A DNA stretch of 38,963 bases from a virus. The position numbers were made by a program, and so were the translations under genes. Below, piece after piece: positions 1 through 38,963 of this stretch. The stretch covers positions 1 through 38,963 of IMG/VR virus record IMGVR_UViG_3300025528_000014. One strand, 5' to 3'. The notes under the pieces were generated by a model that saw only the letters and a program-made list of their open reading frames with translations, ran no database searches and had not been told where the DNA came from. The stretch's first letter is position 1. Each line of letters starts with the position of its first letter.

Positions 1-99
1 ACGGGACGAGGCAAGAAGTAAAGCAGAGGAAGCGTGGAAAGAGATTGACTCACTGGAAGAACAACTCCTATCCTCCCAACAGGAGATTGAGCGGTTGCG
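1..99. repeat. Terminal direct repeat, copy 1 (identical to 38865..38963); marks circular closure of the contig
   Basis: Compared base by base: 1..99 equals 38865..38963, and the match runs to the last base of the window. Confidence 0.95.
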
Positions 100-3402: not shown

Positions 3403-4239
3403 ATGAACGTCTACAAAATTGTCACCGACCGGATCATCGCAAAGCTGAAACAGGGCGTTGTGCCGTGGCGTAAACCGTGGGTGAATGGGCAACCGCCGGT
3501 GGCTGTTAACTGGACGACGCAAAAACCGTACCGGGGCATTAACCAATGGTTGCTGGAGCCGGGCGAGTACGCCACCTTCAAGCAGATTGCCGAAGCCGGC
3601 GGCCGGGTGAGGAAGGGCGAGAAAGCCCAGATCGTGGTCTTCTGGAACTGGATCGAAAAGGAAGACGAAGAAACCGGCGAGGTCGAAAAAATCCCGTTCC
3701 TGCGATACTATAACGTCTTCGAGATCAACACGCAAGTGGAGGGGTTACAGAGCAAGCGAAAGCCGGTTCAGACGTTCGACCATGATCCCATCGAGGCTGG
3801 TGAGAAGATCGTCAGGGGATACGCTGACTGTCCGGAAATTCGGTATGCTTCGGGTCGGGCATACTACCACAAGGCGCTGGACTATATCGTCGTGCCGCCG
3901 CTGATTGACTTCCCGAATCCGAACGAGTTTTATTCGGTGCTGTTCCACGAGATGGTCCACAGCACGGGTCACCCGGACAGGCTGAACCGGAAAGGGGTTG
4001 CGATACCCGCCGCTTTCGGCGACAAGGATTATAGCAAGGAAGAACTGGTCGCCGAGCTGGGCGCCGCGATGCTGTGTAGTCTGGCTGGGATCGAGGACGC
4101 GACGATCAACAACAGTGCGGCGTACATTCAAAACTGGCTTGAACAACTTGGGAATGACTCGAAGCTGATCGTTTACGCCGCCGCACAGGCACAGAAAGCG
4201 GTGGACTATATCACCGGAAACCAATATCAAACCGAATGA
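3403..4239 (+). CDS. ArdC-like antirestriction protein (N-terminal ssDNA-binding DUF1738-type domain plus zincin metallopeptidase domain)
   Basis: N-terminal ITDRIIAKLKQGVVPWRKPW and YRGINQWLL match the ArdC-N pattern. HEMVHSTGH is an HExxH zinc motif. Confidence 0.8.
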   Translation: MNVYKIVTDRIIAKLKQGVVPWRKPWVNGQPPVAVNWTTQKPYRGINQWLLEPGEYATFKQIAEAGGRVRKGEKAQIVVFWNWIEKEDEETGEVEKIPFLRYYNVFEINTQVEGLQSKRKPVQTFDHDPIEAGEKIVRGYADCPEIRYASGRAYYHKALDYIVVPPLIDFPNPNEFYSVLFHEMVHSTGHPDRLNRKGVAIPAAFGDKDYSKEELVAELGAAMLCSLAGIEDATINNSAAYIQNWLEQLGNDSKLIVYAAAQAQKAVDYITGNQYQTE

Positions 4240-4242
4240 CGG

Positions 4243-4265
4243 ACGCCCCTAACGGGGCGTTTTTT
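4243..4265 (+). terminator. Rho-independent terminator
   Basis: ACGCCCC / TAAC loop / GGGGCGT followed by TTTTT, immediately after the ArdC-like stop codon. Confidence 0.75.
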
Positions 4266-4289
4266 AATATAAATCAAGGAGGAAGAAAA

Positions 4290-4811
4290 ATGGTCAAAGT
4301 CTATTGCGCGTATGATGAAATGGTTGACATTACAAAGCTGGTTCCGAATCCGAGAAACCCGAATCAGCATTCAGATAAACAGATCGAACTGCTTGCAAAG
4401 ATCATCGAACATCAAGGTTGGCGCGTACCGATCACGGTTTCAAAACGTTCGGGCTTCGTTGTGCGTGGCCATGGTCGCTTGCAGGCGGCTGAAATTTTGG
4501 GAGTAGAAAAGGTCCCGGTCGATTATCAAGATTACGCAAGCGAAGCAGAAGAATGGGCTGATTTGATCGCGGATAATAGGTTGTCTGAGTTATCTCATAT
4601 GGACAATCAGATGCTGAAAGATTTGATACAAGAGATTGATTCAGGCGAAATTGATTTGACTTTGACAGGATACGATGAATCGGAAATAGAACGTCTTATG
4701 ACGCAACATTTTGAAGCGCCTGATGAGTTTGAAATGCTCGATGTGGATGATATAGAGACAGAATACAGATGTCCGAAATGTAATTATGAATGGAGTGGCA
4801 AACCGCGATGA
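4290..4811 (+). CDS. ParB-like nuclease (ParB/Srx N-terminal) domain protein
   Basis: AAGGAGG RBS. LVPNPRNPNQHSDKQIELLAKIIEHQGWRVPITV...VVRGHGRLQAA is the typical ParBc core. A CxxC pair lies at the C-terminus. Confidence 0.75.
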   Translation: MVKVYCAYDEMVDITKLVPNPRNPNQHSDKQIELLAKIIEHQGWRVPITVSKRSGFVVRGHGRLQAAEILGVEKVPVDYQDYASEAEEWADLIADNRLSELSHMDNQMLKDLIQEIDSGEIDLTLTGYDESEIERLMTQHFEAPDEFEMLDVDDIETEYRCPKCNYEWSGKPR

Positions 4812-5899
4812 AGCCTGAATATAGAGTTCCTAGCATGAAGGAGATCGAGCAGATTCCGCATAACGGTTTTAATGTGGTATCGACTTTTAGCGGTTGCGGC
4901 GGTTCGTGTTTGGGGTATCGCATGGCAGGCTACAAGGTGCTTTACGCGAATGAATTCATTCCAGCGGCGCAAGAAACGTATAAGGCAAATCATCCGGAAA
5001 GTTATTTGGATACCCGTGATATTCGAACTGTTCAGCCGGAAGATATTCTGGAAATCACCGGATTGCAAAAAGGAGAACTGGACATATTCGATGGTTCCCC
5101 GCCTTGCGCTTCCTTTTCGACAGCAGGAAAACGAGAAAAAGGCTGGGGTGAAGTGAAAACATACTCGGATACAAAACAGCGTGTCGATGACTTGTTTTTT
5201 GAGTATACGCGCTTGCTTCGCGGGCTTATGCCGAAGGTGTTCATTGCCGAGAACGTCAAGGGGTTGGTGCTTGGAACCGCAAAGGGTTATTTCAAGGAAA
5301 TTATGCGAGAATTGAAATCATGCGGTTACCGGGTAAAAGCAAGCGTGCTCAATGCAAAATGGTTAGGCGTTCCGCAAAACAGGGAGCGTCTTATTTTTAT
5401 CGGTGTGCGTGAGGATTTAAATATTGAACCCGTATTTCCAAAGCCGTTGCCCTATTTTTATACAGTCGAAGATGCATTTAAGAATCTTCCTGCTGAAAAC
5501 GAAGCACAAGCGCAAGAGTTAAGGGAAAGCGCCAAAAAATATATTAGAGGTTGGTATGGAGTATTAAAAAAAATCCCCAAAAATCCATCGAGAATAATTA
5601 AGGGAAGCGCAGTAAAAAACGGAAGTTACTTTAATCTATCGCGGTTGAGTTTTCTTCATCCGTCCGACACGATTTGCCAAACGAACGGACTCGCAAACGC
5701 TTCGGGTAACTGTCATCCAGCAGAGGATAGAAAATTGACTATATACGAACTCAAACGCATTTGTGCTTTTCCAGATGACTTCATATTGACGGGCACATTT
5801 GAACAACAATGGGAGCGCTTAGGACGAGCCGTTCCTCCTCTGATGATGCGAGAAGTCGCAAAAACGGTGGAGCGTGAAATTTTATGCAAACTAGTTTGA
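4808..5899 (+). CDS. DNA (cytosine-5) methyltransferase-fold enzyme with an atypical motif X (GRAVPP); candidate cytosine C5 carboxymethyltransferase
   Basis: Motifs seen: I FSGCGG, IV GSPPCASFS (Cys codon 5105..5107), VI ENVKGL, VIII QNRERLIFIG, IX RKLTIYELKRICAFPDDF, X LGRAVPP (Arg codon 5825..5827). ATGA overlap with the ParB-like stop. An alternative start is at 4790. Confidence 0.9.
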   Translation: MKPEYRVPSMKEIEQIPHNGFNVVSTFSGCGGSCLGYRMAGYKVLYANEFIPAAQETYKANHPESYLDTRDIRTVQPEDILEITGLQKGELDIFDGSPPCASFSTAGKREKGWGEVKTYSDTKQRVDDLFFEYTRLLRGLMPKVFIAENVKGLVLGTAKGYFKEIMRELKSCGYRVKASVLNAKWLGVPQNRERLIFIGVREDLNIEPVFPKPLPYFYTVEDAFKNLPAENEAQAQELRESAKKYIRGWYGVLKKIPKNPSRIIKGSAVKNGSYFNLSRLSFLHPSDTICQTNGLANASGNCHPAEDRKLTIYELKRICAFPDDFILTGTFEQQWERLGRAVPPLMMREVAKTVEREILCKLV

Positions 5900-6594
5900 A
5901 TCATGAACCGAAAACGGATAAATGGCAATTCGATGAAGAAGTAACCGCCGTATTCGATGATATGCTTGAGCGCAGTATCCCTGATTATTACAACATGCGA
6001 GAACTGGTGCATAAGCTGACGAAAAAATACGCAAGACCAAACACCGTCATTTTGGATTTGGGATGCTCGACTGGCGGTGCGATCAAAAAAGCGATCAACG
6101 AATTACCGAACAATTTTTTCATCGGCATTGAGGTTTCGGAGCCGATGCGTCAAAAAGCAAAAGATAATTTCAAGGGAATCGATCGGGTTGCAATTGTAAA
6201 TCATGATTTGAGAAACGGACTTCCAAAAATCGGGGAAAAAGTTAGTGTAATTTTATCTGTGTTGACGATACAATTTACGCCGATTGAATATAGGCTCAAT
6301 ATCATCAAGGATGTTTACAAAACGCTAGCCGACGGCGGCGTTTTTATTTTTGTCGAAAAAGTGCTTGGCGAAACGGCAGAAATTGACAATACGCTTGTTG
6401 AACTTTATTACGGGCTTAAAGGTGAAAACGGATATACACATGAGAAGATACAGAAAAAACGAAAGTCCTTAGAAGGCGTATTGGTTCCAGTTACGTCAAG
6501 CTGGAATATAGAACTTTTGCGAAAGTCCGGTTTTCAAAATATCGATTGCTTCTGGAGAAACCTTAATTTTGCCGGATATATTGCGATCAAGTAG
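5884..6594 (+). CDS. cmoA: CmoA-like carboxy-S-adenosyl-L-methionine (Cx-SAM) synthase homologue
   Basis: Collinear similarity to E. coli CmoA as I recall it: [25 protein letters not shown] vs [35 protein letters not shown] vs YDLGCSLGAA; LTIQF...GGVFIFVEK vs FTLQF...[27 protein letters not shown]...[11 protein letters not shown] vs NGYSELEISQKRSMLENV...CFNFGSLVALK. It overlaps the methyltransferase gene by 16 nt. Confidence 0.8.
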   Translation: [236 protein letters not shown]

Positions 6595-6612
6595 GAGGTA
6601 GGTGCTATGTGA

Positions 6613-7101
6613 ATGAGCAAAAAAGGAGGACGAAAAGGAAAATATCGTGAGTGGCTTACCGAGGAAGGTTTAACCAAATTAGAAGGCTGGGCGCGTGATG
6701 GCTTGACGGACGAACAGATCGCGCACAACATCGGCATAGCGACAGGAACACTCTATGAATGGAAAAACCGTTTCCCTGAAATAGATGAGGCCTTAAAAAA
6801 GGGGAAAGAAGTCGTCGACATTCAGGTCGAAAACGCGCTTTTAAAAAGAGCGCTGGGCTACTCCTACGAGGAAACAAAAGTTATCGTGGAAACGGACGGC
6901 AGAAAACGAGTGGAGCGCGTGCAAAAGCATGTTTTGCCTGACGTGACAGCGCAAATATTTTGGCTCAAAAACAGAAGGCCAGACAAATGGCGTGATAAGC
7001 ATGAGGTTGATTACGGTGATCGTGTACATGGAAATATACAAGACTACATCGCCGCGCTAAATGAAATTTCAAAGGACGTATGGAACGATGAAGCGGAATA
7101 G
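6613..7101 (+). CDS. terS: Terminase small subunit
   Basis: N-terminal HTH (GLTDEQIAHNIGIATGTLYEWKNRFPE). Size and position directly upstream of TerL. Confidence 0.8.
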   Translation: MSKKGGRKGKYREWLTEEGLTKLEGWARDGLTDEQIAHNIGIATGTLYEWKNRFPEIDEALKKGKEVVDIQVENALLKRALGYSYEETKVIVETDGRKRVERVQKHVLPDVTAQIFWLKNRRPDKWRDKHEVDYGDRVHGNIQDYIAALNEISKDVWNDEAE

Positions 7102-8347
7102 GGCTTCAGCGTTTGAATGGCACCCGTTCAGCCGAAAGCAAAAGCAATTGCTCACATGGTGGATGCCGAAAAGTCCGTACCGGGATTATGACATTGTGAT
7201 CAGTGACGGTGCAATCCGTTCCGGGAAGACGGTCGCCGGGATTGACAGCTTCATCACGTGGTCGCTTCACACGTTCCGGGGCCAGAACTTCATCATATCC
7301 GGGAAGTCCATCGGTGCGCTGAAACGGAATGTTCTGCGGCCCACGTTTCAGATGATGGCCGCGAAAGGGATTCCGTACCGCTACAACAGGTCGGAAGGCT
7401 ATATCGAGATCGGGAGTAATACCTATTACACGTTCGGGGCAAATAACGAGGCCAGTCAGGACGTGTTGCAAGGTTTGACGGCGGCGGGCGCATATGCGGA
7501 TGAAGTGGCGTTGTTTCCGCGTTCGTTCGTAGAGCAGATGATCGGTCGTTGCTCTGTCGAGGGATCAAAAATCTTCATGAACTGCAACCCGGCTGGGCCA
7601 TATCACTATATCAAAACGGACTATATCGACAGGGCCGAGGAAAAGAAAATCCTTCGACTTCACTTTACGCTCGACGACAACCTGACGCTTTCGGAGGAAA
7701 TCAAAGAGCGCTATCGCAGGATGTTCACCGGAGTGTTTTACCAACGGAACATTCTCGGCATGTGGGTGATGGCCGAGGGCGTTATCTATGATATGTTTGA
7801 CCGCGAGAAGCACGTCGTTCCGACGCGCCCGCGGCCTTATACGCAGTATTACGTGAGCATGGACTACGGCACCCAAAACCCGACGACGTTCGGGCTGTGG
7901 GGGCTGTTCAACGGTGTCTGGTATAAGGTCAAAGAATACCATTATGACGGCAGGGCGGAGGCCCGGCAGAAGACGGACGAGGAATACTACGAGGATTTGG
8001 TGGAGTTCGTGGGGAATCTGCCGATTCGCTCGTTGATCATTGACCCGTCGGCGGCGTCGTTTATTACGCTGGTGAGAAAAAAAGGCCGGTTCCATGTGCG
8101 AAAGGCCAAAAATGACGTGCTGGAGGGTATTCGGAACGTGGCGACCGCGCTGGCGACAGGCCGGATCAAATATAACGATTGTTGCAAAGAGACGTTCCGC
8201 GAGTTCGCTTCTTATGTCTGGGACCAGAAGGCGCAGGAGAAGCGCGGCGAGGATGCTCCGCTTAAAATGAACGACCACCATATGGATGCCGACCGTTACT
8301 TTGTGAACACGGTCGTGATGCGGGATTCCGCAATATCTTTCGCGTAA
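7088..8347 (+). CDS. terL: Terminase large subunit (PBSX XtmB-like)
   Basis: Walker A-like GAIRSGKT. About 420 aa and follows TerS. The start is either 7061 or 7088. Confidence 0.9.
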   Translation: MKRNRASAFEWHPFSRKQKQLLTWWMPKSPYRDYDIVISDGAIRSGKTVAGIDSFITWSLHTFRGQNFIISGKSIGALKRNVLRPTFQMMAAKGIPYRYNRSEGYIEIGSNTYYTFGANNEASQDVLQGLTAAGAYADEVALFPRSFVEQMIGRCSVEGSKIFMNCNPAGPYHYIKTDYIDRAEEKKILRLHFTLDDNLTLSEEIKERYRRMFTGVFYQRNILGMWVMAEGVIYDMFDREKHVVPTRPRPYTQYYVSMDYGTQNPTTFGLWGLFNGVWYKVKEYHYDGRAEARQKTDEEYYEDLVEFVGNLPIRSLIIDPSAASFITLVRKKGRFHVRKAKNDVLEGIRNVATALATGRIKYNDCCKETFREFASYVWDQKAQEKRGEDAPLKMNDHHMDADRYFVNTVVMRDSAISFA

Positions 8348-27309: not shown

Positions 27310-27519
27310 ATGCTGATAAAGTGGTTGAAAGCGGCGGGCATACGAGCCGCCCGGACTGCCGCCCAAGCGGCGCTGGCGGCTATCGGCTCCGCAACAATGT
27401 TTGGCGAAGTGGATTGGCGTGTGGTGGGAAGCACCGCCCTGTTGGCGGCTATTGCAAGCATCCTTATGAGCATCACAGGCCTGCCGGAAGTCGAAAAGGA
27501 CGAAGCTGATGGGGAATGA
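27310..27519 (+). CDS. Holin (LL-H-family-like)
   Basis: AAGGAGAG RBS. RAARTAAQAALAAIGS...VDW...ALLAAIASILMSITGLPE is the typical pattern. Confidence 0.7.
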   Translation: MLIKWLKAAGIRAARTAAQAALAAIGSATMFGEVDWRVVGSTALLAAIASILMSITGLPEVEKDEADGE

Positions 27520-28043
27520 AAATCGTCATTGATGTTGCAAAAACTAAAGGAAAAATACGACGAGAGTGTCTTCATTGTAAAAAGGAATTTTACGTCTACC
27601 CTTCGCAAGCAAAGAGGGGTGGGCGTTTTTGTTCTACCAGTTGTACAACAACATATCGAAATTTAACAGATAATCCAGCAAAGCGCCTAGAAGTCAGACG
27701 TAAGATTAGCGATAATCATGCTGATGTTTCCGGGAAAAACAATCCGATGTATGGAAGAAAACCACCCAGCTACATTGATGGCCGTTCATATTTCTCGTCT
27801 TATTACAGAATGGTTGCATTAAAAGATCGACCGCCTATTTGTGAAAAATGCGGAATTGAAGTAAATAGGTATCGTTTGCATGTTCATCACATTGATCGAA
27901 ACAGAGAAAACAATGTACCTGAAAACCTTATGATATTGTGTGCAAAATGCCATTTTGATGAACACAAAGAATCGCATCTTTCAAGACCAAGAGATAGATT
28001 TGGAAGATTCACTAAGGAGGAAAAATCCAAATGCGTATTGTAA
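27516..28043 (+). CDS. HNH homing endonuclease
   Basis: Zn-finger-like CLHCKKEF...FCSTSC, then HVHHIDRNRENNVPENLMILCAKCHFDEH (HNH core). AT-rich. Confidence 0.85.
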   Translation: MKIVIDVAKTKGKIRRECLHCKKEFYVYPSQAKRGGRFCSTSCTTTYRNLTDNPAKRLEVRRKISDNHADVSGKNNPMYGRKPPSYIDGRSYFSSYYRMVALKDRPPICEKCGIEVNRYRLHVHHIDRNRENNVPENLMILCAKCHFDEHKESHLSRPRDRFGRFTKEEKSKCVL

Positions 28044-28747
28044 TAGATGCAGGACACTCTTATGACACGCCCGGAAAACGGTCCCCAGACGGATCGCTCC
28101 GGGAATATCAGTTCAACTCGGCGGTCGCCCGGTACGTCGCTGATACGCTCCTGCACGGGTATGAGGGCGTGGAAATCCTCATGACCCATGACGACAGACG
28201 GGACGTGCCGCTCAAGGAGCGCACGGACAAGGCCAATGCGTGGAAGGCTGATTTGTTCGTTTCGATCCATGCCAACGCGGCCGGCGATGGTGGCTGGAAC
28301 AGCGCACAGGGCATCGAAACCTACGTCTACACCACCCGCCCGGCGGCCGCTGTGAAGCTGGCTGAGGTTGTCCAGCGCAATCTGGTACAGACCACCGGAA
28401 GGCCGAACCGGGGCGTGAAAACCGCAAATTTCCACGTGTTGCGCGAGACGAAAATGCCCGCAATCCTCGTGGAATGCGGCTTTATGACCAACCGCGAAGA
28501 ATGCGAGCTATTGAAGTCCGACGCCTACCGCCGCAAGTGCGCGGAGGCCATCGTCGCCGGGATCGTGGAGACATATGGTCTGAAACCGAAACAGTCCGTG
28601 CAGGAGCCGGCGACCGATGAGGTGTCTGTCTGGGCACGCAAGGCGCGGAAGTGGGCGATGGAGAAGGACATCACGGACGGCACGCGGCCAAAGGATACAG
28701 TGACGCGTGAAGAGCTGTGGACGATGTTGTATCGAGCACTGAAATGA
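28031..28747 (+). CDS. N-acetylmuramoyl-L-alanine amidase endolysin (Amidase_3 type)
   Basis: MRIVIDAGHS...DLFVSIHANA...ILVECGFMTNREE is the family pattern. Confidence 0.9.
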   Translation: MRIVIDAGHSYDTPGKRSPDGSLREYQFNSAVARYVADTLLHGYEGVEILMTHDDRRDVPLKERTDKANAWKADLFVSIHANAAGDGGWNSAQGIETYVYTTRPAAAVKLAEVVQRNLVQTTGRPNRGVKTANFHVLRETKMPAILVECGFMTNREECELLKSDAYRRKCAEAIVAGIVETYGLKPKQSVQEPATDEVSVWARKARKWAMEKDITDGTRPKDTVTREELWTMLYRALK

Positions 28748-38666: not shown

Positions 38667-38963
38667 CACCGAAAAGAAGATCGCGGAGATTCGGAAATCG
38701 GCTGAAGAAGCACGGAAAACCGATAGATCGTGGGTTGACGGACAAGATTATGCCGATGACGTCGAGTTCCTGCTGGACGAGTTGGAACGGGAGCGCGCCG
38801 CGCATAACGCGCATGTGGCGGAGTTGTGCGAGTTGGTAAAAGAAAACCGGAAACTGCTGGAGGAACGGGACGAGGCAAGAAGTAAAGCAGAGGAAGCGTG
38901 GAAAGAGATTGACTCACTGGAAGAACAACTCCTATCCTCCCAACAGGAGATTGAGCGGTTGCG
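38659..38963 (+). CDS. 5' part of the junction-spanning coiled-coil hypothetical protein (continues at 100..277 on the circle)
   Basis: ATG 38659. The ORF stays open to the window end and is in frame with the ORF ending at 277. Confidence 0.7.
   Translation, partial: MTDTEKKIAEIRKSAEEARKTDRSWVDGQDYADDVEFLLDELERERAAHNAHVAELCELVKENRKLLEERDEARSKAEEAWKEIDSLEEQLLSSQQEIERL
38865..38963. repeat. Terminal direct repeat, copy 2 (identical to 1..99)
   Basis: Base-by-base identity with 1..99. Confidence 0.95.

Follow-up and report, generated by a model that had tools for sequence, protein, structure and literature searches.

A predicted CmoX-type DNA cytosine carboxymethyltransferase with an adjoining carboxy-SAM synthase in a small, ligase-free Bacillota-type myovirus

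Introduction

The virus record IMGVR_UViG_3300025528_000014 of IMG/VR, analysed here over its whole length of 38,963 nucleotides (the window), carries on its plus strand a gene for a homologue of C5 DNA methyltransferases (4790..5899) whose motif X reads G-R-A-V-P, with an arginine at the site normally held by asparagine, and, overlapping its end, a gene for a predicted CmoA-type carboxy-SAM synthase (5884..6594). The question raised by this locus is whether the arginine is incidental to an ordinary enzyme dependent on S-adenosylmethionine (SAM), or whether it belongs to a cofactor pocket that recognises the additional carboxylate of carboxy-SAM (Cx-SAM), as had been proposed in an earlier note on this DNA. 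The analysis described here favours the second answer: with a probability of roughly 85%, the enzyme is a CmoX-type DNA carboxymethyltransferase that is fed by CmoA and makes 5-carboxymethylcytosine (5cxmC), the likely end product.

The interpretation as such is already in print: Yang et al. (Nat Commun 2025, December 2025; PMC12783734) described it for SpCmoX and SpCmoA of Synechococcus phage S-B43 and listed 5,615 candidate CmoX systems. The CmoA of that phage makes Cx-SAM, and SpCmoX uses Cx-SAM only and writes 5cxmC at GC sites, to which the ligase CmoY then adds glycine; the product of SpCmoX resists HhaI (PMC12783734). The window contains a new, fairly divergent and ligase-free member of the CmoX family, and the logic of this recently published DNA modification pathway was recovered independently, from the sequence alone.

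Results

The arginine of motif X

Read in the frame of the open reading frame (ORF) 4790-5899, bases 5822..5836 of the plus strand are GGA CGA GCC GTT CCT and encode G-R-A-V-P, the arginine codon CGA occupying 5825-5827 (sequence context QQWERLGRAVPPLMM; surrounding translation QQWERLGRAVPPLMMREV), which agrees with the reading in the earlier note. Residues are numbered throughout from position 4790, which makes this residue Arg346; counted from the ATG at 4808 it is R340. When the protein was compared with the PDB by phmmer, the asparagine of MIGNAVP in M.HaeIII fell on the arginine of RLGRAVPP, and the same column was occupied by the asparagine of QIGNAVPP in plant MET1, a DNMT1-type enzyme (PDB chains 9ped and 9m5u). 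Furthermore, Asn304 of M.HhaI falls exactly on Arg346 when a profile of 52 homologues is compared with the PDB, a four-way MAFFT alignment agrees, and Arg350 of SpCmoX (PDB 8YF3) aligns with it column for column. The arginine therefore does stand at the canonical asparagine position, as had been claimed. The alignment with M.MpeI that had also been suggested could be obtained by sequence for residues 110-275 of 4dkj only; as its C-terminus did not align, equivalence with Asn374 is taken from the literature, according to which the SpCmoX arginine mirrors the N374K substitution of M.MpeI (PMC12783734). The statement of the earlier note that N374K makes M.MpeI use Cx-SAM proved to be correct (PMC13288465; PMC12015181), and the Kohli group found a cationic side chain at this site to be best for Cx-SAM use, by way of a modelled salt bridge (PMC13288465).

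That asparagine is nearly always found here was borne out by 80 diverse viral C5 methyltransferases that served as an independent control and were ranked by their similarity to HaeIII; the site is asparagine in 75, arginine in two and glycine in one, two sequences being unaligned (hence 75 of the 78 aligned). By contrast, all 120 best homologues of the window enzyme (62-90% identity) carry the arginine, so that Arg346 is not a chance variant; SPPC of motif IV is kept likewise.

The role assigned to the residue requires two corrections. It had been expected to contact the amino-acid end of the cofactor; in the 1.9 Å structure of SpCmoX with Cx-SAM (8YF3), however, Arg350, which replaces Asn304 of HhaI, directly contacts the carboxymethyl group and touches the carboxylate of this transferable S-carboxymethyl moiety (PMC12783734). 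Replacement of the arginine by asparagine had also been envisaged as a switch of cofactor preference, whereas SpCmoX R350N is inactive with both SAM and Cx-SAM (PMC12783734); the arginine is therefore necessary, but does not act as a one-residue switch. The central proposal, a carboxylate-recognising pocket coupled to a Cx-SAM synthase, is supported, and matches the solved homologue.

The cmoX and cmoA genes

The ORF 4790-5899 has 369 codons and is assigned to the C5 DNA methyltransferases by PF00145 (E 2.4e-61, over residues 27-360) and TIGR00675 (E 1.1e-55). Its true start is probably the ATG at 4808, giving a protein of 363 amino acids, because this codon overlaps the upstream stop codon as ATGA and follows a GGAG by 12 nucleotides, and because the closest homologue also has 363 residues. 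The motifs follow in the order I (FSGCGG, 33), IV (PPC, 104), VI (ENV, 154), VIII (QNRER, 196) and X (GRAVP, 345). The closest solved structure is that of SpCmoX (8YF3; E 8.4e-82, about 43-46% identity), which is also the top PDB fold match (TM 0.81/0.90) of an AlphaFold2 model built with the 52 homologues (mean confidence score, pLDDT, 90.1). The cofactor-contacting and catalytic residues that Yang et al. name in SpCmoX, Phe25, Glu47, Phe48, Asp69, Cys98 and Arg350, correspond to Phe33, Glu55, Phe56, Asp77, Cys106 and Arg346; all six are conserved, and Glu55, Phe56 and Asp77 are invariant across the 52 homologues.

Motif IV reads S-P-P-C-A (5096..5110, plus strand; context GSPPCASFS) and thus contains the SPPC by which Yang et al. 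recognise CmoX. The codon of the catalytic Cys106 lies at 5105-5107 and is followed at 5108-5110 by that of Ala107, in place of the glutamine of PCQ. The signature of ordinary 5-methylcytosine (5mC) enzymes, GN[AS]V together with PCQ, is absent, GRAV and PCA being found instead. In the catalytic loop the triplet Y-S-D is encoded at 5162..5170 (plus strand), with Ser126 at 5165-5167 and Asp127 at 5168-5170. Searches of public assemblies gave no exactly identical entry for the CmoX protein, and when bacterial genomes were searched for closely related proteins, one fragment was obtained, in a Caulobacter metagenome-assembled genome, which is uninformative on the host.

The first 16 nucleotides of cmoA (5884..6594, plus strand) are shared with the end of cmoX. 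Its product matches TIGR00740 over residues 11-239 of 239 (E 8.8e-47, 159.8 bits) and, over its full length, E. coli CmoA (4gek, E 3.8e-29) and H. influenzae YecO (1im8, E 2.3e-30); it also matches phrog_4752 (E 8.5e-75).

Linkage of the arginine to cmoA

The neighbourhoods of 99 related loci were compared, 17 of them from IMG/VR with the window protein as query, 79 more obtained with an asparagine-type relative from among those 17 as query, and three from GenBank phages. Among these, cmoA lies within 1.42 kb of 67 of the 69 enzymes with arginine at motif X (Arg-types) and of none of the 30 others (28 with asparagine, one with aspartate and one with cysteine). Together with the control sample, 179 viral loci were available, counted as loci and not as independent evolutionary events; cmoA is within 1.42 kb of 69 of the 71 Arg-types and near none of the 106 non-Arg enzymes. 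Both Arg loci of the control sample are CmoX-like (SPPCASFS) and are the sole two in it with an adjoining cmoA. The two exceptions are L057, whose contig stops 187 nucleotides past the gene and whose twin L056 has cmoA, and L017, which corresponds to the Erwinia jumbo phage Yoloswag, in whose group some 15-20 kb separate cmoA from the methyltransferase gene. One asparagine-type locus, L012 (535-1653), is without the segment of motifs V-VI and has no ENV, and may be defective or an assembly artefact; the other 27 are intact, and the conclusion on linkage therefore stands. The arginine is thus an uncommon residue in these enzymes overall, and where it does occur it goes with cmoA. The co-occurrence suggested in the earlier note is a clean one, and the observation that would have spoken against it, arginine being common in ordinary 5mC enzymes that lack cmoA, was not made.

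These counts bear directly on the possibility that the window encodes a normal 5mC methyltransferase working with SAM, in which the arginine is incidental, CmoA serving, for example, the synthesis of uridine 5-oxyacetic acid (cmo5U) in tRNA or the draining of host SAM. The classical role of CmoA is indeed in tRNA modification, and a CmoA 48% identical to that of the window occurs without any detectable C5 methyltransferase in Alcaligenes phage Afa-NA1, so that phage CmoA is not always tied to CmoX. However, the arginine was found in just two of the 78 aligned control enzymes, both adjoining cmoA; the close asparagine-type relatives that occupy the same genomic slot are never accompanied by cmoA; the canonical glutamine after the catalytic cysteine is lost as well; no CmoB-like second transferase was seen among the scanned ORFs; and SpCmoX, with the same arginine, takes Cx-SAM only (PMC12783734). 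An ordinary methyltransferase is therefore considered extremely improbable.

Co-varying sites and relationships of the two types

The SPPC of motif IV, though used in the published work as one of two criteria for the search, is also present in the asparagine-type relatives and does not discriminate between the types. The residue that follows it does: it is glutamine in 27 of the 28 asparagine-type relatives and in 75 of the 80 controls, and alanine, serine or cysteine in all aligned Arg-types, with lysine in the intein-bearing L017. Likewise, the triplet of the catalytic loop is Y-E-H in the asparagine-types and Y-S-D in the Arg-types, the classes being cleanly split in the sample, and Glu94 of HhaI and an aspartate of HaeIII align with Ser126 of the window enzyme. 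The loss of the glutamine and of an acidic side chain near the cofactor is what the fitting of an extra carboxylate would be expected to need.

These additional substitutions also bear on whether the enzyme might use both cofactors and write a mixture of 5mC and 5cxmC, like the engineered methyltransferases with asparagine-to-lysine changes. Such behaviour has precedents, since M.MedI N377K, M.CviPI Y205K and M.CviPI Y205R gain activity with Cx-SAM and keep that with SAM (PMC13288465; PMC12015181), and cellular SAM greatly exceeds Cx-SAM (PMC13288465). Wild-type SpCmoX, however, took Cx-SAM only (PMC12783734); the natural family has at least two further substitutions in pocket and loop, suggesting full commitment; and a dedicated, overlapping cmoA argues for a high supply of Cx-SAM. 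A dual-cofactor enzyme thus appears very unlikely, and exclusive use of Cx-SAM by the window enzyme is preferred.

Relationships were examined with neighbour-joining trees from p-distances over the catalytic core, from which the diagnostic sites had been removed, with HhaI and HaeIII as roots. The Arg-types were monophyletic in none of 200 bootstraps, and SpCmoX was placed outside a clade of the asparagine-types and the window enzyme in 97% of them; in the core, the asparagine-types are 67% and SpCmoX 52% identical to the window enzyme. These trees, a weak form of evidence when built by neighbour-joining on p-distances, suggest that asparagine-types without cmoA nest inside the CmoX radiation, and such nesting points either to a return to SAM as cofactor, accompanied by the loss of cmoA, or to gains on several occasions. 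A single asparagine clade, seen in a midpoint-rooted tree, was overturned by outgroup rooting and bootstrapping. The choice of cofactor may be set by a co-varying code of three sites, i.e. the residue after the catalytic cysteine, serine or an acidic residue in the loop, and arginine or asparagine in motif X, and this SAM/Cx-SAM code may have flipped at least twice, cmoA being gained or lost on each occasion.

The ligase question and the end product

The first 99 bases of the window (1-99) are repeated exactly and directly as its last 99 (38865-38963). The genome is therefore circularly closed, with 38,864 bp, and statements on the absence of genes hold genome-wide. No CmoY-like ligase was found in it by tblastn with SpCmoY and the TurkishDelight ligase or with hidden Markov models (HMMs) of both families (best E 0.48); filters were off, and every ORF of at least 200 amino acids was also scanned against Pfam or PHROGs. 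The pathway is therefore predicted to end at 5cxmC itself, and a small Bacillota-type myovirus may carry unligated 5cxmC as its final genomic base. No report of bare 5cxmC as the final base of a native virion was found; in the single paper that the literature searches gave, the one native phage DNA analysed had the glycine amide only (PMC12783734).

Alternatively, 5cxmC may be an intermediate that an unrecognised ligase or a host enzyme converts to an amide, comparable with the glycyl derivative of Synechococcus phage S-B43, in whose native DNA the glycine amide was the sole form detected, with no 5cxmC (PMC12783734). In 22 of the 69 related Arg-type loci a ligase gene separates cmoX and cmoA or lies next to them. 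A close relative, L100 (67% identity), shares the ParB-cmoX...cmoA-terminase layout, into which an asparagine-synthase-like gene and a gene for an unknown 299-residue protein are inserted. Against this, about two thirds of the related loci are likewise without a ligase, the window genome is closed, neither ligase family was matched in it, the 299-residue protein is unmatched too, and the 16-nucleotide overlap of cmoX and cmoA leaves no room for a gene between them. An amide end product is accordingly regarded as rather unlikely, and 5cxmC is retained as the predicted final base.

The 299-residue gene of L100 (7098-7997; GCA_045616285.1, JAZLGM010000062) is located between cmoX and the ligase; it has no Pfam hit, and no counterpart was found in the window or the other loci.

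The cassette and its genomic context

The cassette, made up of a ParB-like gene, cmoX and cmoA, has an ArdC-like anti-restriction gene on one side and the terminase genes on the other. Its upstream edge is a terminator-like hairpin at 4241..4262 (plus strand), GGACGCCCC-TAAC-GGGGCGTTT followed by a T run, with a 9-bp stem including six GC pairs, directly after the ArdC-like gene; at the other end the cassette runs straight into the terminase genes. The ParB-like protein, which has the N-terminal domain of that family (4290..4811, plus strand; PF02195 E 5.5e-5, phrog_498 E 4e-43, phrog_620 E 8e-40), is encoded in an ORF that opens mechanically at 4236, and ATG 4290, behind AAGGAGG at 4277-4283, is its likely start. 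In most related loci, Arg-type and asparagine-type alike, the methyltransferase gene is preceded by a ParB-like gene, which therefore belongs to the methyltransferase lineage, not to carboxymethylation. Its C-terminal tail CP(K/R)C.(Y/F).WSGKP (window 4758-4811) is also found in L019 (gp122), L020, L012 and L017 and spans phages of Streptomyces, Moraxella and Erwinia; with a single cysteine pair it does not form a complete zinc ribbon alone.

The ArdC-like protein (3403-4239) has a zincin peptidase domain (PF08401 and PF18818; phrog_7245), and two anti-restriction strategies, this protein and the cassette, stand side by side. The G+C content is 45-48% at 4001-8000, from the ParB-like gene through cmoX and cmoA to the terminase genes, whereas the structural genes have about 53-59%, a difference that fits the view of the cassette as a mobile module.

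The genome further encodes small and large terminase, portal, capsid, tail sheath, tape measure, baseplate and endolysin, as well as RecT, a DnaD-like loader, a G39P-like protein, dUTPase and YopX; no tRNA genes were found in the window. The host of this myovirus is probably a member of the Bacillota, because the best matches of the sheath protein are in Brevibacillus phages (56% identity), followed by those in Clostridium phages. A nucleotide search with 25 kb from the window start gave no match among GenBank phages. Two genes are endolysin-like, one inside the tail module (20318-20995) and one in the lysis position (28031-28747), the latter immediately preceded by an HNH endonuclease gene (27516-28043).

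Observations in other phages

In L017 (Erwinia phage vB_EamM_Yoloswag, 6678-8720), an in-frame intein of about 350 amino acids (CFLKDT...VVHN|C) splits CmoX immediately before the catalytic cysteine; the whole gene is labelled as a hypothetical protein in GenBank. The SPbeta-like Staphylococcus phage of NC_029119 (L103, 6001-7700) has cmoA followed by a HhaI-like C5 methyltransferase with PCQ and, at the asparagine site of motif X, glycine (VVGGVIN), a pairing missed by the published filter of SPPC plus arginine; it is either a second way of fitting Cx-SAM or unrelated. The CmoA of Afa-NA1 (PV550095; L102, L105 and L106) is the closest to that of the window among GenBank phages; no C5 methyltransferase was found by tblastn and the family HMM across the whole 78-kb record, and two DPPY-type 'adenine methylases' are present. 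Pseudomonas phage SM1 (L104, 3606-6687) encodes a ParB-like protein, a 518-residue protein and a distant CmoA-like protein (27% identity). The 518-residue protein combines ParB-like N-terminal regions with a C-terminus resembling class I methyltransferases (LDFGAG), and may be a different Cx-SAM-linked transferase.

Discussion

Proposed mechanism

For the window itself, the analysis establishes the sequence features, the homology, the fold and the linkage of the genes. The chemistry, the contact of the arginine with the carboxylate and the protection from HhaI are known from a homologue of about 43-46% identity, and the protein of the window would be expected to act in the same manner. CmoA would convert host SAM and prephenate to Cx-SAM. 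CmoX would flip the target cytosine out, Cys106 of SPPC would attack C6, and the carboxymethyl group of Cx-SAM would be transferred to C5, yielding 5cxmC. A salt bridge between Arg346 and the extra carboxylate of the cofactor would account for the use of Cx-SAM, while the loss of the glutamine after the cysteine (now Ala107) and of the acidic residue of the loop (now Ser126) probably makes space and removes charge repulsion. Without CmoY, the modification would most likely end at 5cxmC, shielding the packaged DNA from host restriction.

Several points weigh against this interpretation. The identity to the characterised SpCmoX is limited, as given above, and conservation is lowest in the target-recognition region of the protein. 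The asparagine-types on which the linkage comparison depends fall in just two or three clades. The modification could be extended by a host enzyme or by a ligase from a family not recognised here. Finally, the 159.8 bits of the cmoA product are below the NCBIfam equivalog cut-off of TIGR00740 (193.3); the validated SpCmoA scores lower still (115.6 bits), and the cut-off therefore seems too strict for phage members.

Taken jointly, a ligase-free cassette that leaves bare 5cxmC as the final base and a co-varying cofactor code that has flipped repeatedly form a reading that is offered tentatively, at somewhat less than even odds. The combination of arginine for asparagine with cmoA reliably flags such systems in unannotated phage genomes. 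Being compact, closed and ligase-free, the genome of the window is a good candidate for asking whether bare 5cxmC exists in nature, and it also suits questions on the target sequence of CmoX and the defence systems evaded. The co-varying sites and the asparagine-type relatives represent a natural experiment for the conversion between methyltransferase and carboxymethyltransferase, which is relevant to sequencing methods based on 5cxmC.

Comparison with known systems

The system of the window resembles SpCmoX/SpCmoA in being phage-encoded, in the C5 methyltransferase fold, SPPC and the arginine of motif X, in the conserved adenine, ribose and catalytic contacts, and in having cmoA in the same cassette. 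The phages differ, a 39-kb Bacillota-type myovirus versus the 214-kb cyanophage S-B43, as do the gene orders (ParB-cmoX-cmoA versus cmoA-cmoY-cmoX) and the end product, which is predicted to be 5cxmC in the window and is a glycine amide in S-B43. SpCmoX targets GC sites.

The engineered M.MpeI N374K, M.MedI N377K and M.CviPI Y205K/R likewise owe their use of Cx-SAM and formation of 5cxmC to a cationic residue at or beside the asparagine of motif X (PMC13288465; PMC12015181). They are, however, single-residue laboratory mutants, of which the M.MedI and M.CviPI variants retain SAM activity (PMC13288465; PMC12015181), while the window enzyme has arginine together with correlated changes after the cysteine and in the catalytic loop.

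With the 5mC enzymes of the Dcm, HhaI and HaeIII type the window enzyme shares the fold, the order of motifs and the catalytic Cys/ENV/QxRxR residues, and the asparagine-type, ParB-linked phage enzymes (e.g. L021 and L022) are 67% identical to it in the core, have the ParB partner as well and occupy the same position ahead of the terminase genes. Both groups differ from it in having PCQ, an acidic loop residue and GN in motif X, and in never adjoining cmoA. The CmoA/CmoB pathway to cmo5U in tRNA of Gram-negative bacteria has in common with the window the chemistry of CmoA, from SAM and prephenate to Cx-SAM, and CmoB, in which an arginine is proposed to recognise the carboxylate of the cofactor, is similar to CmoX in this respect (PMC12783734). 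The acceptors differ: in the cmo5U pathway it is 5-hydroxyuridine (ho5U) of tRNA, modified by CmoB, whereas in the window it is predicted to be C5 of cytosine in DNA, modified by a homologue of the C5 methyltransferases.

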